From Escherichia coli (GTDB taxonomy: Bacteria > Pseudomonadota > Gammaproteobacteria > Enterobacterales > Enterobacteriaceae): DNA of 64,000 bases. A program made the translations under genes and the position numbers. The stretch is from NCBI RefSeq assembly GCF_048403405.1, contig NZ_CP183131.1. One strand, 5' to 3'. How positions within the stretch are numbered: the stretch's first letter is position 1; each line of letters opens with the position of its first letter. The notes beneath the pieces were generated by a model. It saw nothing but the letters and a program-made list of their open reading frames with translations. It had not been told where the DNA came from and did no database searches. Below, in pieces: positions 86 through 59,356 of the stretch.

Positions 86-1845
<1,760 letters not shown>

Positions 1846-4323: not shown

Positions 4324-5143
4324 GGCACTGTTGCAAATAGTCGGTGGTGATAAACTTATCATCCCCTTTTGCTGATGGAGCTGCACATGAACCCATTCAA
4401 AGGCCGGCATTTTCAGCGTGACATCATTCTGTGGGCCGTACGCTGGTACTGCAAATACGGCATCAGTTACCGTGAGCTGCAGGAGATGCTGGCTGAACGC
4501 GGAGTGAATGTCGATCACTCCACGATTTACCGCTGGGTTCAGCGTTATGCGCCTGAAATGGAAAAACGGCTGCGCTGGTACTGGCGTAACCCTTCCGATC
4601 TTTGCCCGTGGCACATGGATGAAACCTACGTGAAGGTCAATGGCCGCTGGGCGTATCTGTACCGGGCCGTCGACAGCCGGGGCCGCACTGTCGATTTTTA
4701 TCTCTCCTCCCGTCGTAACAGCAAAGCTGCATACCGGTTTCTGGGTAAAATCCTCAACAACGTGAAGAAGTGGCAGATCCCGCGATTCATCAACACGGAT
4801 AAAGCGCCCGCCTATGGTCGCGCGCTTGCTCTGCTCAAACGCGAAGGCCGGTGCCCGTCTGACGTTGAACACCGACAGATTAAGTACCGGAACAACGTGA
4901 TTGAATGCGATCATGGCAAACTGAAACGGATAATCGGCGCCACGCTGGGATTTAAATCCATGAAGACGGCTTACGCCACCATCAAAGGTATTGAGGTGAT
5001 GCGTGCACTACGCAAAGGCCAGGCCTCAGCATTTTATTATGGTGATCCCCTGGGCGAAATGCGCCTGGTAAGCAGAGTTTTTGAAATGTAAGGCCTTTGA
5101 ATAAGACAAAAGGCTGCCTCATCGCTAACTTTGCAACAGTGCC
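4324..5143 (+). mobile_element. IS26: IS26, complete 820 bp (tnp26 4387-5091)
   Basis: 14-bp terminal IRs ggcactgttgcaaa / tttgcaacagtgcc; 234-aa Tnp26 ([18 protein letters not shown]…); different 8-bp flanks, so no TSD. Confidence 0.97.
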
Positions 5144-5377
5144 GTCAAACGCCTCATTGAGCACCGGCAGTAATCCCTCACCTTCATGGGTCAGCACCAG
5201 CCCGCGCGAGACGCGGGTAAACAGCACACAGCCGAGTTGTTCTTCCAGCGCCCTGACCTGCTGGCTGACGGCGGCATGGGTGACATTCAGCTCAATCGCC
5301 GCGCGGGTAAAACTGAGATGACGGGCGGCGGCCTCAAAGGCGCGCAGCGGGTTAAGGGGGAGATAACGTCTGACCAT
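5144..5377 (-). pseudogene. ampR: ampR (LysR-type regulator) 5' remnant, truncated by IS26
   Basis: LysR HTH N-terminus (MVRRYLPLNPLRAFEAAARHLSFTRAA…) fused into IS26 sequence after about 78 codons; downstream of qnrA1 as in ISCR1-qnrA1 modules. Confidence 0.8.
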
Positions 5378-5562
5378 AATCCACCTGTAAGTTTTTCTTT
5401 AGGGCAGTTGAGTCTTCATAATGCCTCCTTTGAAGGGAAGGTATAACGTCGGCTGCGGCAGCAGAGAAACGGCATTCCGGCGGTAATACTCTGCTATAGC
5501 AGAATCTGCCTTGTTGTAGCGCGGAACTCAAGTGATATTTGCCTCTTGTGTTTGCATTCGAG

Positions 5563-6219
5563 CTAATCCGGCAGCACTATTACTCCCAAGGGTTCCAGCA
5601 GTTGCTCCTGTTGCCAGGCACAGATCTTGACTCCTTCGAGGTTGACCCGTCTGGGGTCGAGCCCATCCAGATCGGCAAAGGTCAGGTCACAGCCCCGCAG
5701 ATTGACCTGTTGCCAACAGTCGCGGGAGAAGGTGCCGCGGCTGAGATCTGAGCCCATCAAGGAAGCGCCGCTGAGATTGGCATTGCTCCAGTTGTTTTCA
5801 AACAGCTCGCATTTTTCCAGGCATTGGCCACTCAAGTTGGTATAGGCCAGGTTGCAACCTGAGATATAAGCCGAGCAGAAGTACATCTTATGGCTGACTT
5901 GATTGTAGAAGCGGGCCCGGGAAAAGTTGGCGCCCTTGAGATCGCACTCCCTGAACTCTATGCCAAAGCAGTTGGCACCGCTGAAGTTGGCCAAAGACAG
6001 ACGGCAGGCCTTGAAACTGGCATCGCGCAGATCGGCATAGCTGAAGTGACACCCTTCAACGGCGCCGCTTTCAATGAAACTGCAATCCTCGAAACTGGCA
6101 TCCTGCAGCTGACAGTGGCTGAAGTCACACTGATAAAAGCGGCAGCGGCGAAAACGGCTGTCACTCAAATCCTGGCGTGAGAAATCCTCTTGCTGAAAAA
6201 CTTTATCAATAATATCCAT
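5563..6219 (-). CDS. qnrA1: Quinolone-resistance pentapeptide-repeat protein QnrA1
   Basis: 218 aa, MDIIDKVFQQEDFSRQDLSDSRFRRCRFYQCDFSHCQLQDASF…, pentapeptide repeats throughout; adjacent to ISCR1. Confidence 0.88.
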   Translation of the reverse strand: MDIIDKVFQQEDFSRQDLSDSRFRRCRFYQCDFSHCQLQDASFEDCSFIESGAVEGCHFSYADLRDASFKACRLSLANFSGANCFGIEFRECDLKGANFSRARFYNQVSHKMYFCSAYISGCNLAYTNLSGQCLEKCELFENNWSNANLSGASLMGSDLSRGTFSRDCWQQVNLRGCDLTFADLDGLDPRRVNLEGVKICAWQQEQLLEPLGVIVLPD

Positions 6220-6270
6220 ACGGCTTCCTTTAATCAGGGAGGGTGCTAACGGGTATAGGAAGTATAAACC

Positions 6271-8424
6271 ACCTTTTTGCTCCTCATCCGAAGTATCTTA
6301 CCTGAAATTCCCTCACTCGTTTACCGCTCAAGCCCCAATTTTAACTGCCGGTCCAGCCTAAACCGCTCTAATAAGGTTCGATTTGGCGGTAAAATCTCTA
6401 GCCTGATAGCTCGAGAGATACAAACTGCCCCACCGCCCCGTTTAAAAGTTGGCAGTGTTGAGCAGTGTTGGATTTGGGGTCGTCAGTCAAAGAGACGACT
6501 CTGTGATGGATCGAACAGGCTGGGAGTCAGTGGCGGCGCTCGTTCTGGTGGCAGCTCACGCTGCTTGGCGGCATTCGCCTTGGCTGTTTTCTGTTTCAGA
6601 TGCTTGAGAATCTGCTCAATGACCTTCGGATCTTCGATGCTGGCAATCACTTTGACGTGACCGCCGCAGTGTTCGCAGACTTCAATATCAATATTGAAGA
6701 CTCGCTTGAGGCGTTGCATCCAGGTCATGGCGCGGTGGCGCTCTGCAGGACTCTTGTCACGCCAGTTAGTATCGAGACCTTCCGATTTGTCGGGCTTCTT
6801 GCCCCGCTTGGCGGGTGTTACTTGAACTCGGTGTTTGCTGTTCGGTGCAAAGACGCCGTGGAAGCGTGTGAGGTTGACTCGCGGCTTAGGTACCAACGCA
6901 GCGAGTTTGGCGATGAAGTCCAGCGGCTCGAAGATCACATGGGTGGTGCCATTGCGGTACGGAGTTTTGAGCTCGTAACGCACCTGCCCATTGGCGGTTA
7001 ATGCCAGACGTTTTTCTGAAACCGCTGGCCGACTAATGTAGCGACACAAGCGCTCAAGCTTATCCCGCTGATGCGCTTCGGCCATCACACCGGCGTGTAG
7101 CGAGAAACCAGCATGGTTGGCTACTCGACTGCTTGAGTCGGCTTTATCCTCACGCCCTGGCAAGGTTTGCAGGGTGAAGACTTTGCGCCCTTGCTGGGGG
7201 CCGACGGCAATGCGATACGTAACCGAAGCACCATGTAATTGAGTCAGCGTATCGTCTTCGCCCTCTTCCAGTGTCAACCACGTATTCTCGGCATCACGCT
7301 CCAAAATCCCACGCTTTTCCATGCAGCGAGCGATGCGATGGCTGAGGGTGTGAGCGAGCGTATTCAGCTCATCGTAAGTGGGTGCCTTGACACGATGGAA
7401 GCGTTGCTTGCCATAGTCATCTTCGGCATAGACACCATCGAGAAACAGCATGTGGTAGTGGACATTGAGATTTAGCGCGGAGCCAAAGCGTTGGATAAGA
7501 GTCACTGAGCCAGTTTGTGCAGAGGCTTTGGTGTAACCGGCTTTTTTGATCAGATGAGTTGAGAGTGTACGATAGACGATACTCAAGACCTGGCCCATCA
7601 GCTGGGGATGGCGAGCCAGCAAAAAGCGTAGCTGGAAAGGAAAGCTGAGCACCCACTGGCGAATGGGCTCCTTGGGGAAGACTTCGTCTATCAGCAGCGC
7701 CGCACTCTCGGCCATCCGGCGGGCACCGCAGCTAGGGCAAAAGCCGCGTCGTTTACAGCTGAAGGCGACCAGACGCTCGTGATGACAATCCTCGCAGCGA
7801 ACCCGCATGAAACCATACTCCAGACGGCCACATTGGAGGAGGTCGTTGAATTCTTGTTGGATGTAGCGAGGCAGGTGTTGACCTTGGGCTTCGAGTGAGG
7901 CTTTGAAGGCTGGGTAGTGCTGCTCAACCAGCTGGTAGAGCAGCGTCTGGTCGGGTTGGTGGCGTTCGTAACCGTTTGTTTGAGTGGGCGATTGACTCGC
8001 CGTGGCGTTCCTTGCCAGCGACATGGGTATCCTCCGCTGATACTGTGGTTATGTACAGTATCAGCGGCTTGCGTTCAGACGTCCAGTCTGGCCCTAGACA
8101 TCGCTAAATGCTTAACCCGCAATAGCCCTCACGAGTTGTTATCAGCCACTACCGGTTGAGCGAGAAGGTTTTGGGTTCAGGGTGCTATTGCTCCACCAAT
8201 CACAATACTGAAGCCCCAACTGTTATCAGTTGGGGCTTTTTCTTGTCTGTTTGCGGCGGTTGCGTTTTATCGGTAGTCGTCGAGCTCTGCACCATCCCAC
8301 ATAAGAGCTTAACGGTGCGATCTTCAACGCCATCACACAAAACTTTCTTTTTCACGCACAGTCAACTTATTGGATGTTTTATTAACAACCCAAAAGGAGA
8401 TATTTAGCGGGCGGCCGGAAGGTG
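6271..8424 (-). mobile_element. ISCR1: ISCR1 (boundaries approximate)
   Basis: Contains orf513; located directly after sul1 and before qnrA1 as in complex class 1 integrons; ends not verified at nucleotide level. Confidence 0.65.
6483..8024 (-). CDS. orf513: ISCR1 rolling-circle transposase (Orf513)
   Basis: 513 aa, MSLARNATASQSPTQTNGYERHQPDQTLLYQLVEQHY…; IS91-like HUH transposase features. Confidence 0.9.
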   Translation of the reverse strand: MSLARNATASQSPTQTNGYERHQPDQTLLYQLVEQHYPAFKASLEAQGQHLPRYIQQEFNDLLQCGRLEYGFMRVRCEDCHHERLVAFSCKRRGFCPSCGARRMAESAALLIDEVFPKEPIRQWVLSFPFQLRFLLARHPQLMGQVLSIVYRTLSTHLIKKAGYTKASAQTGSVTLIQRFGSALNLNVHYHMLFLDGVYAEDDYGKQRFHRVKAPTYDELNTLAHTLSHRIARCMEKRGILERDAENTWLTLEEGEDDTLTQLHGASVTYRIAVGPQQGRKVFTLQTLPGREDKADSSSRVANHAGFSLHAGVMAEAHQRDKLERLCRYISRPAVSEKRLALTANGQVRYELKTPYRNGTTHVIFEPLDFIAKLAALVPKPRVNLTRFHGVFAPNSKHRVQVTPAKRGKKPDKSEGLDTNWRDKSPAERHRAMTWMQRLKRVFNIDIEVCEHCGGHVKVIASIEDPKVIEQILKHLKQKTAKANAAKQRELPPERAPPLTPSLFDPSQSRLFD

Positions 8425-8428
8425 AATG

Positions 8429-9268
8429 CTAGGCATGATCTAACCCTCGGTCTCTGGCGTCGCGACTGCGAAATTTCGCGAGGGTTTCCGAGAAGGTGAT
8501 TGCGCTTCGCAGATCTCCAGGCGCGTGGGTGCGGACGTAGTCAGCGCCATTGCCGATCGCGTGAAGTTCCGCCGCAAGGCTCGCTGGACCCAGATCCTTT
8601 ACAGGAAGGCCAACGGTGGCGCCCAAGAAGGATTTCCGCGACACCGAGACCAATAGCGGAAGCCCCAACGCCGACTTCAGCTTTTGAAGGTTCGACAGCA
8701 CGTGCAGCGATGTTTCCGGTGCGGGGCTCAAGAAAAATCCCATCCCCGGATCGAGGATGAGCCGGTCGGCAGCGACCCCGCTCCGTCGCAAGGCGGAAAC
8801 CCGCGCCTCGAAGAACCGCACAATCTCGTCGAGCGCGTCTTCGGGTCGAAGGTGACCGGTGCGGGTGGCGATGCCATCCCGCTGCGCTGAGTGCATAACC
8901 ACCAGCCTGCAGTCCGCCTCAGCAATATCGGGATAGAGCGCAGGGTCAGGAAATCCTTGGATATCGTTCAGGTAGCCCACGCCGCGCTTGAGCGCATAGC
9001 GCTGGGTTTCCGGTTGGAAGCTGTCGATTGAAACACGGTGCATCTGATCGGACAGGGCGTCTAAGAGCGGCGCAATACGTCTGATCTCATCGGCCGGCGA
9101 TACAGGCCTCGCGTCCGGATGGCTGGCGGCCGGTCCGACATCCACGACGTCTGATCCGACTCGCAGCATTTCGATCGCCGCGGTGACAGCGCCGGCGGGG
9201 TCTAGCCGCCGGCTCTCATCGAAGAAGGAGTCCTCGGTGAGATTCAGAATGCCGAACACCGTCACCAT
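8429..9268 (-). CDS. sul1: Sulfonamide-resistant dihydropteroate synthase Sul1
   Basis: 279 aa from [21 protein letters not shown]…; overlaps the qacEdelta1 stop (atggtgac); ORF-track N-terminal extension rejected. Confidence 0.92.
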
Positions 9269-9609
9269 GGCGTCGGCCTCCGCAGCGACTTCCACGATGG
9301 GGATCGGGCGAGCAAAAAGGCAGCAATTATGAGCCCCATACCTACAAAGCCCCACGCATCAAGCTTTTGCCCATGAAGCAACCAGGCAATGGCTGTAATT
9401 ATGACGACGCCGAGTCCCGACCAGACTGCATAAGCAACACCGACAGGGATGGATTTCAGAACCAGAGAAAGAAAATAAAATGCGATGCCATAACCGATTA
9501 TGACAACGGCGGAAGGGGCAAGCTTAGTAAAGCCCTCGCTAGATTTTAATGCGGATGTTGCGATTACTTCGCCAACTATTGCGATAACAAGAAAAAGCCA
9601 GCCTTTCAT
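9262..9609 (-). CDS. qacEdelta1: QacEdelta1, truncated SMR efflux protein of the class 1 integron 3'-CS
   Basis: 115 aa, [27 protein letters not shown]…. Confidence 0.92.
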
Positions 9610-9707
9610 GATATATCTCCCAATTTGTGTAGGGCTTATTATGCACGCTTAAAAATAATAAAAGCAGACTTGACCTGATAGTTTGGCTGTGAGCAATTAT
9701 GTGCTTA

Positions 9708-9772
9708 GTGCATCTAACGCCGGAGTTAAGCCGCCGCGCGTAGCGCGGTCGGCTTGAACGAATTGTTAGACA
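9708..9772 (-). other. attC (59-be) of the aadA2 cassette
   Basis: Imperfect inverted repeat catctaacgccggagttaagccgccgcgcgtagcgcggtcggcttgaacgaattgttagac between aadA2 and qacEdelta1. Confidence 0.6.
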
Positions 9773-10564
9773 TCATTTACCAACTGACTTGATGATCTCG
9801 CCTTTCACAAAGCGAATAAATTCTTCCAAGTGATCTGCGCGTGAGGCCAAGTGATCTTCTTTTTGTCCCAGATAAGCTTGCTTAGCTTCAAGTAAGACGG
9901 GCTGATACTGGGCAGGTAGGCGTTTTATTGCCCAGTCGGCAGCGACATCCTTCGGCGCGATTTTGCCGGTTATTGCGCTGTACCAAATGCGGGACAACGT
10001 AAGCACTACATTTCGCTCATCGCCGGCCCAGTCGGGCTGCGAGTTCCATAGCTTCAAGGTTTCCCTCAGCGCCTCGAATAGATCCTGTTCAGGAACCGGG
10101 TCAAAGAATTCCTCCGCTGCCGGACCTACCAAGGCAACGCTATGTTCTCTTGCTTTTGTAAGCAGGATAGCTAGATCAATGTCGATCATGGCTGGCTCGA
10201 AGATACCCGCAAGAATGTCATTGCGCTGCCATTCTCCAAATTGCAGCTCGCGCTTAGCCGGATAACGCCACGGGATGATGTCGTCATGCACGACAAGGGT
10301 GACTTCTATAGCGCGGAGCGTCTCGCTCTCGCCAGGGAAAGCCGAAGCCTCCATAAGATCATTGAGCAATGCTCGCCGCGTCGTTTCATCAAGCTTTACG
10401 GCCACAGTAACCAACAAATCAATATCGCTGTATGGCTTCAGGCCGCCATCCACTGCGGAGCCGTACAAATGCACGGCCAGCAACGTTGATTCCAGATGGC
10501 GCTCAATGACGCTTAGCACCTCTGATAGTTGGTTCGAAATTTCGATGGTCACCGCTTCCCTCAT
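9773..10564 (-). CDS. aadA2: Aminoglycoside (3'')(9) adenylyltransferase AadA2
   Basis: 263 aa, MREAVTIEISNQLSEVLSVIERHLESTLLAVHLYGSAVDGGLKPYSDIDLL…. Confidence 0.88.
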   Translation of the reverse strand: MREAVTIEISNQLSEVLSVIERHLESTLLAVHLYGSAVDGGLKPYSDIDLLVTVAVKLDETTRRALLNDLMEASAFPGESETLRAIEVTLVVHDDIIPWRYPAKRELQFGEWQRNDILAGIFEPAMIDIDLAILLTKAREHSVALVGPAAEEFFDPVPEQDLFEALRETLKLWNSQPDWAGDERNVVLTLSRIWYSAITGKIAPKDVAADWAIKRLPAQYQPVLLEAKQAYLGQKEDHLASRADHLEEFIRFVKGEIIKSVGK

Positions 10565-10569
10565 GATGT

Positions 10570-10860
10570 CTAACGGGCGAGGTAAGCCGACCGCAGAATG
10601 CGGGTCGGCTTGACCGAAATGTTAGAACCAGAAGCCAAAACGGATAACTTGAATTTGGCGACGGGCGCTAACCGTGAAAAAACGCTGCGCCACCGAGGCG
10701 GCACAGCACTGCAAAAACGATAGCTGCTTGCGCTTGCTACGCAAGGGCTAGAGGCCAAAAAGACTGAAAACCTGCGCAGCCCATGCAGGCGAAGCCCGGA
10801 AAAAAGGCAAAACAGGCACTGAATAACGCCTGAAAAGCTAAATGCCGTTTGAATAAACAT
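10570..10860 (-). CDS. gcuF: Gene cassette of unknown function (gcuF / orfF)
   Basis: 96-aa ORF between dfrA12 and aadA2; the dfrA12-gcuF-aadA2 array is well established; attC-like repeat at 10567-10627. Confidence 0.65.
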   Translation of the reverse strand: MFIQTAFSFSGVIQCLFCLFSGLRLHGLRRFSVFLASSPCVASASSYRFCSAVPPRWRSVFSRLAPVAKFKLSVLASGSNISVKPTRILRSAYLAR

Positions 10861-10971
10861 GAGCTAAATAAAGCTGGGTTTCAGTGGTGCTAACGTTGGA
10901 CGTAACGAGAGCCGGAGCGCAGCGGAGGGAACCAAAATGCGCAGCATTTTGGCGTCCCGTTGACGGAATGG

Positions 10972-11469
10972 TTAGCCGTTTCGACGCGCATAAACGGAGT
11001 GGGTGTACGGAATTACAGCTTGAATGGTTTCGGTTGAGACAAGCTCGAATTCTGTTTCGTTGAGCATTGGGAAGAAGGCGTCACCCTCGAAGGTTTGATG
11101 TACCTCAGATAGAAACACGCCGTGGGCGTGAGGTAGTGCCAGAGTGTATATCTCAGCTCCGCCCGCGACGTAGAGTTCATTGCCGAGTTCGGATGCCAAA
11201 GCGATAGCGTGCGACAGCGTTGAAACAACTACGCAGCCAGTGGCGCGGTAGTTAGCTTGGCGTGAGATTACCAATGTGTGACGGTTCGGTAGAGGCTTGC
11301 CGATAGACTCAAAGGTCTTTCGCCCCATGACAACGACTTTTCCCTCAGTGAGTCTGCGAAAAATCTTCTGCTCACCCGGAATTTTCCAGGGGATATTAGG
11401 ACCATTGCCAATAACCCGATTGGCTCCCATCGCAGCAACGAGATAAATGCGTACTGATTCCGAGTTCAT
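10972..11469 (-). CDS. dfrA12: Trimethoprim-resistant dihydrofolate reductase DfrA12
   Basis: 165 aa, MNSESVRIYLVAAMGANRVIGNGPNIPWKIPGEQKIFRRLTEGKVVVMGRKTFESIG…. Confidence 0.87.
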   Translation of the reverse strand: MNSESVRIYLVAAMGANRVIGNGPNIPWKIPGEQKIFRRLTEGKVVVMGRKTFESIGKPLPNRHTLVISRQANYRATGCVVVSTLSHAIALASELGNELYVAGGAEIYTLALPHAHGVFLSEVHQTFEGDAFFPMLNETEFELVSTETIQAVIPYTHSVYARRNG

Positions 11470-11540
11470 ATGGCTAACTTTGTTTTAGGGCGACTGCCCT
11501 GCTGCGTAACATCGTTGCTGCTCCATAACATCAAACATCG
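11470..11540 (-). other. attI1 integration site
   Basis: Canonical attI1 sequence (reverse complement …gccctaaaacaaagttagcc) abutting the first cassette. Confidence 0.7.
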
Positions 11541-11613
11541 ACCCACGGCGTAACGCGCTTGCTGCTTGGATGCCCGAGGCATAGACTGTACAAAAAAACA
11601 GTCATAACAAGCC

Positions 11614-12627
11614 ATGAAAACCGCCACTGCGCCGTTACCACCGCTGCGTTCGGTCAAGGTTCTGGACCAGTTGCGTGAGCGCATACGCTACTTGCATTAC
11701 AGCTTACCAACCGAACAGGCTTATGTCCACTGGGTTCGTGCCTTCATCCGTTTCCACGGTGTGCGTCACCCGGCAACCTTGGGCAGCAGCGAAGTCGAGG
11801 CATTTCTGTCCTGGCTGGCGAACGAGCGCAAGGTTTCGGTCTCCACGCATCGTCAGGCATTGGCGGCCTTGCTGTTCTTCTACGGCAAGGTGCTGTGCAC
11901 GGATCTGCCCTGGCTTCAGGAGATCGGAAGACCTCGGCCGTCGCGGCGCTTGCCGGTGGTGCTGACCCCGGATGAAGTGGTTCGCATCCTCGGTTTTCTG
12001 GAAGGCGAGCATCGTTTGTTCGCCCAGCTTCTGTATGGAACGGGCATGCGGATCAGTGAGGGTTTGCAACTGCGGGTCAAGGATCTGGATTTCGATCACG
12101 GCACGATCATCGTGCGGGAGGGCAAGGGCTCCAAGGATCGGGCCTTGATGTTACCCGAGAGCTTGGCACCCAGCCTGCGCGAGCAGCTGTCGCGTGCACG
12201 GGCATGGTGGCTGAAGGACCAGGCCGAGGGCCGCAGCGGCGTTGCGCTTCCCGACGCCCTTGAGCGGAAGTATCCGCGCGCCGGGCATTCCTGGCCGTGG
12301 TTCTGGGTTTTTGCGCAGCACACGCATTCGACCGATCCACGGAGCGGTGTCGTGCGTCGCCATCACATGTATGACCAGACCTTTCAGCGCGCCTTCAAAC
12401 GTGCCGTAGAACAAGCAGGCATCACGAAGCCCGCCACACCGCACACCCTCCGCCACTCGTTCGCGACGGCCTTGCTCCGCAGCGGTTACGACATTCGAAC
12501 CGTGCAGGATCTGCTCGGCCATTCCGACGTCTCTACGACGATGATTTACACGCATGTGCTGAAAGTTGGCGGTGCCGGAGTGCGCTCACCGCTTGATGCG
12601 CTGCCGCCCCTCACTAGTGAGAGGTAG
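11614..12627 (+). CDS. intI1: Class 1 integron integrase IntI1
   Basis: 337 aa, [53 protein letters not shown]…; divergent from the cassettes. Confidence 0.95.
11701..11729 (-). promoter_or_regulatory. Cassette promoter Pc, weak variant with extended -10 (PcW TGN-10)
   Basis: Minus strand reads TGGACA-N17-TAAGCT, with TGG immediately upstream of the -10 (gttggtaagct). Confidence 0.75.
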
Positions 12628-12804
12628 GGCAGCGCAAGTCAATCCTGGCGGATTCACTACCCCTGCGCGAAGGCCATCGGTGCCGCATCGAACGGCCGGT
12701 TGCGGAAAGTCCTCCCTGCGTCCGCTGATGGCCGGCAGCAGCCCGTCGTTGCCTGATGGATCCAACCCCTCCGCTGCTATAGTGCAGTCGGCTTCTGACG
12801 TTCA

Positions 12805-12829
12805 GTGCAGCCGTCTTCTGAAAACGACA
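12805..12829. repeat. IRi, 25-bp integrase-end inverted repeat of the class 1 integron
   Basis: gtgcagccgtcttctgaaaacgaca is the reverse complement of the canonical IRi; 20 bp later the sequence is cut by IS26. Confidence 0.75.
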
Positions 12830-12849
12830 ATGGAGGTGGTAGCCGAGGG

Positions 12850-13669
12850 GGCACTGTTGCAAAGTTAGCGATGAGGCAGCCTTTTGTCTTATTCAAAGGC
12901 CTTACATTTCAAAAACTCTGCTTACCAGGCGCATTTCGCCCAGGGGATCACCATAATAAAATGCTGAGGCCTGGCCTTTGCGTAGTGCACGCATCACCTC
13001 AATACCTTTGATGGTGGCGTAAGCCGTCTTCATGGATTTAAATCCCAGCGTGGCGCCGATTATCCGTTTCAGTTTGCCATGATCGCATTCAATCACGTTG
13101 TTCCGGTACTTAATCTGTCGGTGTTCAACGTCAGACGGGCACCGGCCTTCGCGTTTGAGCAGAGCAAGCGCGCGACCATAGGCGGGCGCTTTATCCGTGT
13201 TGATGAATCGCGGGATCTGCCACTTCTTCACGTTGTTGAGGATTTTACCCAGAAACCGGTATGCAGCTTTGCTGTTACGACGGGAGGAGAGATAAAAATC
13301 GACAGTGCGGCCCCGGCTGTCGACGGCCCGGTACAGATACGCCCAGCGGCCATTGACCTTCACGTAGGTTTCATCCATGTGCCACGGGCAAAGATCGGAA
13401 GGGTTACGCCAGTACCAGCGCAGCCGTTTTTCCATTTCAGGCGCATAACGCTGAACCCAGCGGTAAATCGTGGAGTGATCGACATTCACTCCGCGTTCAG
13501 CCAGCATCTCCTGCAGCTCACGGTAACTGATGCCGTATTTGCAGTACCAGCGTACGGCCCACAGAATGATGTCACGCTGAAAATGCCGGCCTTTGAATGG
13601 GTTCATGTGCAGCTCCATCAGCAAAAGGGGATGATAAGTTTATCACCACCGACTATTTGCAACAGTGCC
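12850..13669 (-). mobile_element. IS26: IS26, complete 820 bp (tnp26 12902-13606, minus strand)
   Basis: Terminal IRs at 12850-12863 and 13656-13669; identical Tnp26 ORF; inverted relative to the copy at the window start. Confidence 0.97.
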
Positions 13670-13962
13670 GTATCACTCATGGCCTGTTTCGGCTTCACAA
13701 AAAAATGGTTCATTTTGTGCGCAAACGTCCAGCTTTCAGAATCGCCAAAAGCATGAGTGATATAGGTTTCGTCAGGCGCGACAACAATGTGGGTAGCCAC
13801 ACCGGCGATAGCGTCAATTTTGACCACATTAACAGGGTTATAAACAACGCTTTTAATGCGATAGTCATAAGGATAATTGCGGCCAACCTCAAGCGCCATA
13901 ACGTTAGTGGCCGCGCCTCCCAGGACTGACAAAACGACTGCTGAAAGAAGTAGTTTTTTCAT
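13670..13962 (-). pseudogene. traO: traO (VirB9-like), 5' portion including signal peptide; interrupted by IS26
   Basis: MKKLLLSAVVLSVLGGAATNVMA signal peptide then VirB9 N-domain; ORF reads into the IS26 IR; 8-bp gtatcact at the junction. Confidence 0.8.
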
Positions 13963-56159: not shown

Positions 56160-56979
56160 GGCACTGTTGCAAATAGTCGGTGGTGATAAACTTATCATCC
56201 CCTTTTGCTGATGGAGCTGCACATGAACCCATTCAAAGGCCGGCATTTTCAGCGTGACATCATTCTGTGGGCCGTACGCTGGTACTGCAAATACGGCATC
56301 AGTTACCGTGAGCTGCAGGAGATGCTTGCTGAACGCGGAGTGAATGTCGATCACTCCACGATTTACCGCTGGGTTCAGCGTTATGCGCCTGAAATGGAAA
56401 AACGGCTGCGCTGGTACTGGCGTAACCCTTCCGATCTTTGCCCGTGGCACATGGATGAAACCTACGTGAAGGTCAATGGCCGCTGGGCGTATCTGTACCG
56501 GGCCGTCGACAGCCGGGGCCGCACTGTCGATTTTTATCTCTCCTCCCGTCGTAACAGCAAAGCTGCATACCGGTTTCTGGGTAAAATCCTCAACAACGTG
56601 AAGAAGTGGCAGATCCCGCGATTCATCAACACGGATAAAGCGCCCGCCTATGGTCGCGCGCTTGCTCTGCTCAAACGCGAAGGCCGGTGCCCGTCTGACG
56701 TTGAACACCGACAGATTAAGTACCGGAACAACGTGATTGAATGCGATCATAGCAAACTGAAACGGATAATCGGCGCCACGCTGGGATTTAAATCCATGAA
56801 GACGGCTTACGCCACCATCAAAGGTATTGAGGTGATGCGTGCACTACGCAAAGGCCAGGCCTCAGCATTTTATTATGGTGATCCCCTGGGCGAAATGCGC
56901 CTGGTAAGCAGAGTTTTTGAAATGTAAGGCCTTTGAATAAGACAAAAGGCTGCCTCATCGCTAACTTTGCAACAGTGCC
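56160..56979 (+). mobile_element. IS26: IS26 variant copy, 820 bp (tnp26 56223-56927)
   Basis: Terminal IRs intact; carries Tnp26 Gly177Ser (…ECDHSKLK…) and a synonymous ctg>ctt change shared with the copy at 59588-60407. Confidence 0.96.
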
Positions 56980-57025
56980 TTTAAGCGTGCATAATAAGCC
57001 CTACACAAATTGGGAGTTAGACATC

Positions 57026-57625
57026 ATGAGCAACGCAAAAACAAAGTTAGGCATCACAAAGTACAGCATCGTGACCAACAGCAACGATTCCGTCACACTG
57101 CGCCTCATGACTGAGCATGACCTTGCGATGCTCTATGAGTGGCTAAATCGATCTCATATCGTCGAGTGGTGGGGCGGAGAAGAAGCACGCCCGACACTTG
57201 CTGACGTACAGGAACAGTACTTGCCAAGCGTTTTAGCGCAAGAGTCCGTCACTCCATACATTGCAATGCTGAATGGAGAGCCGATTGGGTATGCCCAGTC
57301 GTACGTTGCTCTTGGAAGCGGGGACGGACGGTGGGAAGAAGAAACCGATCCAGGAGTACGCGGAATAGACCAGTTACTGGCGAATGCATCACAACTGGGC
57401 AAAGGCTTGGGAACCAAGCTGGTTCGAGCTCTGGTTGAGTTGCTGTTCAATGATCCCGAGGTCACCAAGATCCAAACGGACCCGTCGCCGAGCAACTTGC
57501 GAGCGATCCGATGCTACGAGAAAGCGGGGTTTGAGAGGCAAGGTACCGTAACCACCCCATATGGTCCAGCCGTGTACATGGTTCAAACACGCCAGGCATT
57601 CGAGCGAACACGCAGTGATGCCTAA
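57026..57625 (+). CDS. aac(6')-Ib-cr: Aminoglycoside/fluoroquinolone acetyltransferase AAC(6')-Ib-cr
   Basis: 199 aa; both signature substitutions present: Trp102Arg ([10 protein letters not shown]) and Asp179Tyr (TTPYGPAVY); ORF-track N-terminal extension into IS26 rejected. Confidence 0.9.
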
Positions 57626-57691
57626 CCCTTCCATCGAGGGGGACGTCCAAGGGCTGGCGCCCTTGGCCGCCCCTCATGTCAAACGTTGGGC
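57620..57691 (+). other. attC of the aac(6')-Ib cassette
   Basis: Inverse core gcctaac at 57620, core gttgggc at 57685; imperfect inverted repeat. Confidence 0.55.
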
Positions 57692-57755
57692 GAACCCGGA
57701 GCCTCATTAATTGTTAGCCGTTAAAATTAAGCCCTTTACCAAACCAATACTTATT

Positions 57756-58586
57756 ATGAAAAACACAATACATATCAACTTCGCTATTTTTTTAATAATT
57801 GCAAATATTATCTACAGCAGCGCCAGTGCATCAACAGATATCTCTACTGTTGCATCTCCATTATTTGAAGGAACTGAAGGTTGTTTTTTACTTTACGATG
57901 CATCCACAAACGCTGAAATTGCTCAATTCAATAAAGCAAAGTGTGCAACGCAAATGGCACCAGATTCAACTTTCAAGATCGCATTATCACTTATGGCATT
58001 TGATGCGGAAATAATAGATCAGAAAACCATATTCAAATGGGATAAAACCCCCAAAGGAATGGAGATCTGGAACAGCAATCATACACCAAAGACGTGGATG
58101 CAATTTTCTGTTGTTTGGGTTTCGCAAGAAATAACCCAAAAAATTGGATTAAATAAAATCAAGAATTATCTCAAAGATTTTGATTATGGAAATCAAGACT
58201 TCTCTGGAGATAAAGAAAGAAACAACGGATTAACAGAAGCATGGCTCGAAAGTAGCTTAAAAATTTCACCAGAAGAACAAATTCAATTCCTGCGTAAAAT
58301 TATTAATCACAATCTCCCAGTTAAAAACTCAGCCATAGAAAACACCATAGAGAACATGTATCTACAAGATCTGGATAATAGTACAAAACTGTATGGGAAA
58401 ACTGGTGCAGGATTCACAGCAAATAGAACCTTACAAAACGGATGGTTTGAAGGGTTTATTATAAGCAAATCAGGACATAAATATGTTTTTGTGTCCGCAC
58501 TTACAGGAAACTTGGGGTCGAATTTAACATCAAGCATAAAAGCCAAGAAAAATGCGATCACCATTCTAAACACACTAAATTTATAA
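57756..58586 (+). CDS. blaOXA-1: Class D beta-lactamase OXA-1
   Basis: 276 aa from MKNTIHINFAIFLIIANIIYSSASASTDISTVASPLFEGTEGCFLLYD…; STFK active site. Confidence 0.93.
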   Translation: MKNTIHINFAIFLIIANIIYSSASASTDISTVASPLFEGTEGCFLLYDASTNAEIAQFNKAKCATQMAPDSTFKIALSLMAFDAEIIDQKTIFKWDKTPKGMEIWNSNHTPKTWMQFSVVWVSQEITQKIGLNKIKNYLKDFDYGNQDFSGDKERNNGLTEAWLESSLKISPEEQIQFLRKIINHNLPVKNSAIENTIENMYLQDLDNSTKLYGKTGAGFTANRTLQNGWFEGFIISKSGHKYVFVSALTGNLGSNLTSSIKAKKNAITILNTLNL

Positions 58587-58602
58587 AAAATCTAATGGCA
58601 AA

Positions 58603-58695
58603 ATCGCCCAACCCTTCAATCAAGTCGGGACGGCCAAAAGCAAGCTTTTGGCTCCCCTCGCTGGCGCTCGGCGCCCCTTATTTCAAACGTTAGAC
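58603..58695 (+). other. attC of the blaOXA-1 cassette (approximate)
   Basis: Inverted-repeat region ending in core gttagac. Confidence 0.5.
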
Positions 58696-58723
58696 GGCAA
58701 AGTCACAGACCGCGGGATCTCTT

Positions 58724-59356
58724 ATGACCAACTACTTTGATAGCCCCTTCAAAGGCAAGCTGCTTTCTGAGCAAGTGAAGAACCCCAATATCAAAGTTGG
58801 GCGGTACAGCTATTACTCTGGCTACTATCATGGGCACTCATTCGATGACTGCGCACGGTATCTGTTTCCGGACCGTGATGACGTTGATAAGTTGATCATC
58901 GGTAGTTTCTGCTCTATCGGGAGTGGGGCTTCCTTTATCATGGCTGGCAATCAGGGGCATCGGTACGACTGGGCATCATCTTTCCCGTTCTTTTATATGC
59001 AGGAAGAACCTGCATTCTCAAGCGCACTCGATGCCTTCCAAAAAGCAGGTAATACTGTCATTGGCAATGACGTTTGGATCGGCTCTGAGGCAATGGTCAT
59101 GCCCGGAATCAAGATCGGGCACGGTGCGGTGATAGGCAGCCGCTCGTTGGTGACAAAAGATGTGGAGCCTTACGCTATCGTTGGCGGCAATCCCGCTAAG
59201 AAGATTAAGAAACGCTTCACCGATGAGGAAATTTCATTGCTTCTGGAGATGGAGTGGTGGAATTGGTCACTGGAGAAGATCAAAGCGGCAATGCCCATGC
59301 TGTGCTCGTCTAATATTGTTGGCCTGCACAAGTATTGGCTCGAGTTTGCCGTCTAA
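58724..59356 (+). CDS. catB3: Chloramphenicol acetyltransferase CatB3 (full length)
   Basis: 210 aa, hexapeptide-repeat acetyltransferase, [33 protein letters not shown]…. Confidence 0.88.

Follow-up and report, generated by a model that had tools for sequence, protein, structure and literature searches.

The cassette promoter (Pc) at 11729..11701 on the minus strand of the window (the whole 64-kb stretch of DNA analyzed) is almost certainly the class 1 integron Pc of the PcW-TGN-10 allele, driving the cassettes dfrA12-gcuF-aadA2. This is an already known, named allele, and its association with this array has already been published. PcW was defined as TGGACA-17-TAAGCT, and the form with G in place of C 2 bp upstream of the -10 was proposed as a distinct variant (Jove et al., 2010, PLoS Genet 6:e1000793, PMC2791841); the same paper credits Nesvera and co-workers with the first report of the mutation.

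A pattern search for TGGACA-N17-TAAGCT across the 64-kb window returned one match, at 11701-11729 on the minus strand, with 0.01 expected by chance. The initial annotation had read this motif, with TGG next to the -10, as the PcW(TGN-10) configuration, leaving the strand unstated, and both the motif and the assignment hold. Every element of the published definition is present: TGGACA, the 17-bp spacer, TAAGCT, the C-to-G change 2 bp upstream of the -10, and a position inside the opposite-strand intI1, which encodes IntI1 P32_H39 (Jove et al., 2010). The spacer is exactly 17 nt, and the misreading of its length named there as what would refute the assignment did not occur. The window 29-mer has no mismatch to PcW-TGN-10, one to PcW, two to PcH1 or PcH2, and three to PcS. 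The motif is not a chance match: across the 3 kb around it, the window shows 100% identity to the intI1-dfrA12-gcuF-aadA2 region of numerous plasmids, and no second Pc-like sequence occurs in the window. A generic sigma-70 scan (10900-12700 and 8400-11800) did not flag Pc, since TAAGCT agrees with the consensus at only 3/6 positions; this fits a weak core promoter needing the TG extension. In E. coli sigma-70 promoters, TG at -15/-14 offers an extra contact to sigma-70/RNA polymerase, offsetting poor hexamers. Nothing in the sequence speaks against the PcW-TGN-10 assignment. The features of the integron are collected in Table 1.

Table 1. Features of the class 1 integron in the window, by ascending position.
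Feature	Position	Strand	Basis or remark
3'-CS: qacEdelta1 9609..9262, sul1 9268..8429	8429..9717	-	
Junction aadA2/3'-CS	9718/9717		
aadA2 cassette, 856 bp; CDS 10564 (or GTG 10552)..9773	9718..10573	-	AMRFinder AadA2 100% in identical record
Junction gcuF/aadA2	10574/10573		
gcuF (orfF, DUF1010) cassette, 320 bp; ORF 10860..10570	10574..10893	-	
Junction dfrA12/gcuF	10894/10893		
dfrA12 cassette, 584 bp; CDS 11469..10972; attC ends at core GTTAGCA 10894..10888	10894..11477	-	NF000053 DfrA12, 385 bits
Junction attI1/dfrA12	11478/11477		between G and TTAGCC
ORF-11 and Shine-Dalgarno: GGAG 11524..11521, ATG 11512, stop TAG 11476..11474, peptide MLRSRAVALKQS	11474..11524	-	
Presumed PintI1, TTGCTG-17-TAGACT, convergent with Pc	11559..11587	+	sequence match
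P2 region TTGTTA-14 nt-TACAGT, inactive form	11585..11610	-	sequence read; PMC2791841, PMC8876359
LexA box CTGTACAAAAAAACAG overlapping the -10 of PintI1, intact	11586..11601	.	sequence read; discussion of PMC2791841
intI1, intact, 337 aa	11614..12627	+	NCBIfam NF011946, 797 bits, 1-337/337
Pc -10 hexamer TAAGCT	11701..11706	-	weak allele (PcS and PcH1: TAAACT)
Pc spacer, 17 nt, TAAGCCTGTTCGGTTGG	11707..11723	-	sequence read and allele alignment
Pc extended -10 TGG (TGN), last 3 spacer bases, abutting the -10	11709..11707	-	sequence read and allele alignment
Diagnostic G of TGN (plain PcW: C)	11708	-	alignment to natural PcW, PcH1, PcS and PcW+P2 alleles
Pc -35 hexamer TGGACA	11724..11729	-	pattern match; weak allele (PcS and PcH2: TTGACA)
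Presumed IRi, outer end of 5'-CS	12806..12830	.	direct read

Alignment to reference Pc variants, the check proposed with the initial annotation, leads to the same allele. A 541-nt query running from Pc into dfrA12 matched 1747 PLSDB plasmids at ≥80% coverage, and the six records of the sample that fell short of full identity to it formed an allele panel, aligned on the common attI1-dfrA12 junction: CP042600 (PcW-TGN-10, its mismatch lying in dfrA12), OQ420475 (PcW), CP074536 (PcH1), CP011990 (PcH1, with one extra SNP), MN256758 (PcS), and CP043751 (PcW + P2, with the GGG insertion). Between Pc and dfrA12, the three diagnostic Pc positions and the GGG of P2 account for all differences between these records and the window, apart from the SNP of CP011990, and the window therefore belongs unambiguously to the PcW-TGN-10 class.

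The activity that may be ascribed to the Pc of the window rests on published work with an identical sequence. The reported order of strength is PcW < PcH1 < PcW-P2 < PcW-TGN-10 < PcS, at 1, 4.5, 7, 15, and 25 times PcW (Jove et al., 2010), in agreement with the claim of the initial annotation that the TGN extension partly compensates for the weak promoter. These fold changes were obtained with E. coli lacZ fusions and the values differ between studies, the gain from TGN being 5-fold in the first report, ~15-fold in the later one (PMC2791841), and ~18-fold from the units tabulated in a review (720 for PcW-TGN-10, 40 for PcW, and 1240 for PcS; PMC8876359). The review also describes that Pc activity can vary with the host. 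For a first-position aac(6')-Ib cassette, the tobramycin MIC was reported to be 8-fold higher with PcW-TGN-10 than with PcW (PMC2791841).

Pc is embedded in intI1 codons 30-39 on the opposite strand, and because the same base (11708) serves both, the change that creates TGN also replaces Arg32 of IntI1 with Pro. At codon 32 the triplet CCA (11707-11709) encodes Pro, and at codon 39 CAC (11728-11730) encodes His, which gives IntI1 P32_H39, the variant listed for PcW-TGN-10 in Table 3 of PMC2791841. R32P is the sole difference between the IntI1 of the window and that of the PcW plasmid OQ420475 (336/337 identical). RefSeq IntI1 identifiers track the Pc allele: the near-identical IncC record has WP_000845039, PcW and PcH1 records share WP_000845048, and PcS goes with WP_000845054. 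Compared with R32_H39, IntI1 P32_H39 was reported to have 336-fold lower excision and only ~3-fold lower integration (PMC2791841). The PcW-TGN-10 base would thus trade excision activity of the integrase for stronger transcription of the cassettes.

The TTGCTG and TAGACT hexamers convergent with Pc are taken here to be PintI1 of class 1 integrons, and the 25 bp at 12806..12830 are likewise presumed to be IRi, the Tn402/class 1 integron terminal repeat. The parts of a class 1 integron 5'-CS were all found: intact intI1, attI1 ending in AAACAAAG directly before the TT of the junction, PintI1 with its LexA box, and IRi. An IS26 end lies at 12850, 19 bp beyond IRi. Active P2 carries a GGG insertion that sets TTGTTA and TACAGT 17 bp apart; in the window they are 14 nt apart, and GGG is seen, by contrast, in CP043751. 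The absence of this insertion leaves the LexA box intact, and intI1 would stay SOS-repressible. Because P2 is inactive, Pc is the only defined cassette promoter. PintI1 is named in the legend of Figure 8 of the review (PMC8876359), which describes transcriptional interference of Pc on PintI1 as demonstrated mainly for PcS.

Downstream of Pc, the minus strand carries in succession attI1, dfrA12, gcuF (DUF1010), aadA2, qacEdelta1, sul1, ISCR1, qnrA1, and truncated ampR. Cassette boundaries and attC sites were located by core-site search and folding; the three cassettes follow one another without gaps, their core sites are canonical, and each attC folds into the expected hairpin. The further claim of the initial annotation, that Pc sets the expression of dfrA12-gcuF-aadA2, fits this anatomy, in which Pc faces attI1 and the three cassettes, P2 is inactive, and that strand has no other consensus promoter between Pc and sul1. 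The published papers examined give no numerical Pc start; transcription would begin just past 11701, at about 11694. A leader of ~225 nt would follow, made of the antisense of the intI1 5' end and then attI1, and dfrA12, gcuF, and aadA2 would be transcribed as one operon, with expression falling with distance from Pc, from dfrA12 to aadA2. Given such position effects, the expression of gcuF and aadA2 would depend on several determinants, Pc among them. Terminator-like hairpins within dfrA12 and gcuF were fewer than in shuffled sequence, with no excess over chance.

The dfrA12 ATG lies 8 nt into its cassette with no Shine-Dalgarno sequence upstream. ORF-11, encoded in attI1, has GGAG 8 nt upstream of its own ATG, and its TAG, supplied by the cassette core site, ends 4 nt before the dfrA12 ATG. 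Translational coupling to ORF-11 has been described for cassettes that lack their own initiation region (PMC8876359). Lacking its own ribosome-binding site, dfrA12 is probably translated by coupling to ORF-11, and its expression may depend on this coupling in the first position. The minus strand, the R32P change, this dependence of dfrA12 on ORF-11, and the position effects are absent from the initial annotation. The only match at the Rfam gathering level in the 64 kb, RF02912 (AAC_AAD_leader, "putative aminoglycoside riboswitch / attI site"; 11524..11446, minus strand, 71.2 bits against a gathering cutoff of 56), covers the same segment as attI1/ORF-11. The family is described as a leader of aminoglycoside acetyl- or adenylyl-transferase genes, and the gene that follows here is dfrA12, for trimethoprim resistance; this fits the view of the family as simply attI1 with ORF-11, in line with a published account that equates the putative riboswitch with attI1 and its ORF-11 (PMC8876359). 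A 72-aa ORF (11466-11684, minus strand) starts ~10 nt past the presumed Pc start, and its TGA overlaps the dfrA12 ATG (ATGA); it has no obvious Shine-Dalgarno sequence, is antisense to the 5' end of intI1, and is probably not a gene.

The exact PcW-TGN-10 30-mer was found by exact-word megablast in 2269 of 72,556 PLSDB plasmids, at 2530 places, with a query placed so that no 28-nt word misses any of the three diagnostic bases. Less strict 30-mer queries, in which one 28-nt word skips the -35 G/T position and both -35 alleles are therefore pooled, matched 2406 records for TGN+TAAGCT, 2279 for TCN+TAAGCT, and 4552 for TCN+TAAACT; with this pooling the PcH1 and PcS counts are identical (4552), and the TAAGCT counts combine PcW-type and PcH2-type promoters. 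In an evenly spaced sample of the 1747 plasmids, PcW-TGN-10 preceded dfrA12 in 16 of 21 dfrA12-first integrons. Extrapolated from 15-16 of the 21 sampled, dfrA12-first integrons seem to account for ~1250-1330 of the 2269 plasmids that carry the 30-mer. Published surveys found dfrA12-orfF-aadA2 behind PcW-TGN-10, PcH1, and PcS. The site is polymorphic among 26 species-representative, mostly environmental genomes with this stretch, the alleles being PcW (16), PcH1 (5), PcS (3), and PcW-TGN-10 (2); no dfrA12-first integron was among these 26 genome-contig loci, and a JGI metagenome scan held no copy of the exact junction from Pc to the dfrA12 start. The exact PcW-TGN-10 30-mer also occurs in the Corynebacterium glutamicum plasmid NC_004945.1. 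Exact 5'-CS sequence with PcW or PcS was likewise seen in contigs assigned to Gram-positive Actinomycetes (loci L009, L012, L022, and L024), which belong to an Actinomycetes MAG, Rothia nasimurium, Microbacterium sp., and Micrococcus terreus.

That the promoter is plain PcW, weak, lacking the extended -10, and leaving the cassettes poorly expressed, has a negligible probability. Both hexamers are of the PcW type and PcW was the commonest allele in the genomes scanned, but G, not C, stands 2 bp upstream of the -10 (11708), and intI1 codon 32 is CCA (Pro) instead of CGA (Arg), and the sequence thereby rules this candidate out. It is also highly improbable, if somewhat less so, that Pc is secondary and the cassettes are driven mainly by P2 in an active state, by a promoter within a cassette, or by transcription reading out of a neighboring IS. 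The P2 hexamers are there, active P2 is reported to dominate in PcW+P2 integrons (PMC2791841), and some IS elements supply outward promoters, according to the review; however, the P2 of the window has the inactive 14-bp spacer and no GGG, and the generic promoter scan found no other consensus promoter on the minus strand from 11800 down to 8400. Moreover, all of intI1 separates Pc from the nearest upstream IS26, nothing is inserted between Pc and dfrA12, and the 5' UTRs of the cassettes measure only 8 (dfrA12), 33 (gcuF), and 9-21 nt (aadA2).

A different kind of alternative accepts the allele and concerns why the base was kept. It assumes that C-to-G was retained mainly for its effect on the integrase, since R32P with poor excision would freeze the array, and that the promoter gain is a side effect. 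The 336-fold loss of excision in the published assays (PMC2791841), the 100% identity of the 3-kb intI1-to-aadA2 segment (9700-12700) in many plasmids, the at least 1553 records that cover ≥80% of it at high identity, and the share of PcW-TGN-10 among sampled dfrA12-first integrons (about 3/4) are in its favor. It is compatible with the promoter reading, yet the same papers report the 15-fold gain in transcription and the 8-fold higher MIC for a first-position cassette, and the same array is also found behind PcW, PcH1, PcS, and PcW+P2, so that its stability does not require P32; as the main reason, we consider the integrase effect unlikely. Somewhat more plausible, though still doubtful, is the idea that the high frequency of PcW-TGN-10 worldwide largely reflects clonal spread of one frozen integron and not repeated, independent selection of C-to-G. 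Such an integron would combine intI1(P32) with dfrA12-gcuF-aadA2 and be locked by the poor excision activity of its integrase.

The window is ~100% identical to IncC plasmids of Klebsiella pneumoniae and other Enterobacterales, e.g., NZ_CP129693.1 (Taiwan). The integron is a complex class 1 integron (4324-8024), with ISCR1 (8024..6483) and qnrA1 (6219..5563) after the 3'-CS; the ampR downstream of qnrA1 is truncated by IS26 (tnp 4369-5091), and the usual second copy of the 3'-CS is absent for this reason. The closest record, NZ_CP129693.1, instead has a duplicated sul1-ISCR1 unit. The window begins inside an IS26 that ends at 85, and an IS26 of opposite orientation lies at 12850-13669. The 8 bp beside each of them, AGTGATAC (86-93) and GTATCACT (13670-13677), are reverse complements, and this inverted target-site duplication is the mark of intramolecular replicative IS26 transposition with inversion. 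It splits a TrbG/VirB9-family gene, intact in the near-identical plasmid NZ_CP129693.1, into a C-terminal part (101..685, plus strand) and an N-terminal part (13962..13618, minus strand). The way the integron is oriented between these IS26 copies implies either an additional flip or another ancestor. A second cassette array (56205-59356, on to ~63750) consists of IS26, aac(6')-Ib-cr, blaOXA-1, catB3, IS26, fosA3, and IS26; it has neither intI1 nor Pc, which means that no Pc can be driving its cassettes. Immediately before aac(6')-Ib-cr there is a candidate hybrid promoter, with a -35 TTGCAA (56967-56972) inside the IS26 terminal repeat and, at 17 bp spacing, a -10 CATAAT (56990-56995) in the adjacent DNA.

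The Pc allele affects the trimethoprim and streptomycin/spectinomycin resistance delivered by the array and, via R32P, also the ease with which cassettes are reshuffled. A correct allele call is useful for annotating this IncC multiresistance plasmid and for predicting phenotype from genotype. PcW-TGN-10 is a textbook allele in one of the commonest resistance integrons, and its presence here adds nothing new to integron biology.

Among known systems, PcW-TGN-10 as described by Jove et al. (2010) shares with the window the hexamers, the 17-bp spacer, TGG, the location in intI1 codons 30-39, the orientation to attI1, and IntI1 P32_H39, and no difference is detectable at the level of sequence. 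PcW has the same hexamers and spacing and 28/29 bases in common, with a natural example at the same dfrA12 junction in OQ420475; it differs in having TCG before the -10, with C at the equivalent of 11708, in being reported as ~15-fold weaker, and in its IntI1 R32_H39, described as the most excision-proficient integrase (PMC2791841). PcW + P2, with a natural example at the same junction in CP043751, is another route by which the weak PcW is compensated. There, GGG in attI1 creates a second promoter with a 17-bp spacer and breaks the LexA box, whereas the window lacks GGG, keeps the 14-nt spacing, and has the box intact. With E. coli extended -10 (TGnTATAAT) sigma-70 promoters, the Pc of the window shares TG at -15/-14 directly upstream of the -10, which offsets a weak core (ref 19 of Jove et al., 2010). 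Many of those promoters have no usable -35, whereas the Pc of the window combines a 5/6 match at the -35 and an optimal 17-bp spacing with an unusually poor -10 (3/6).
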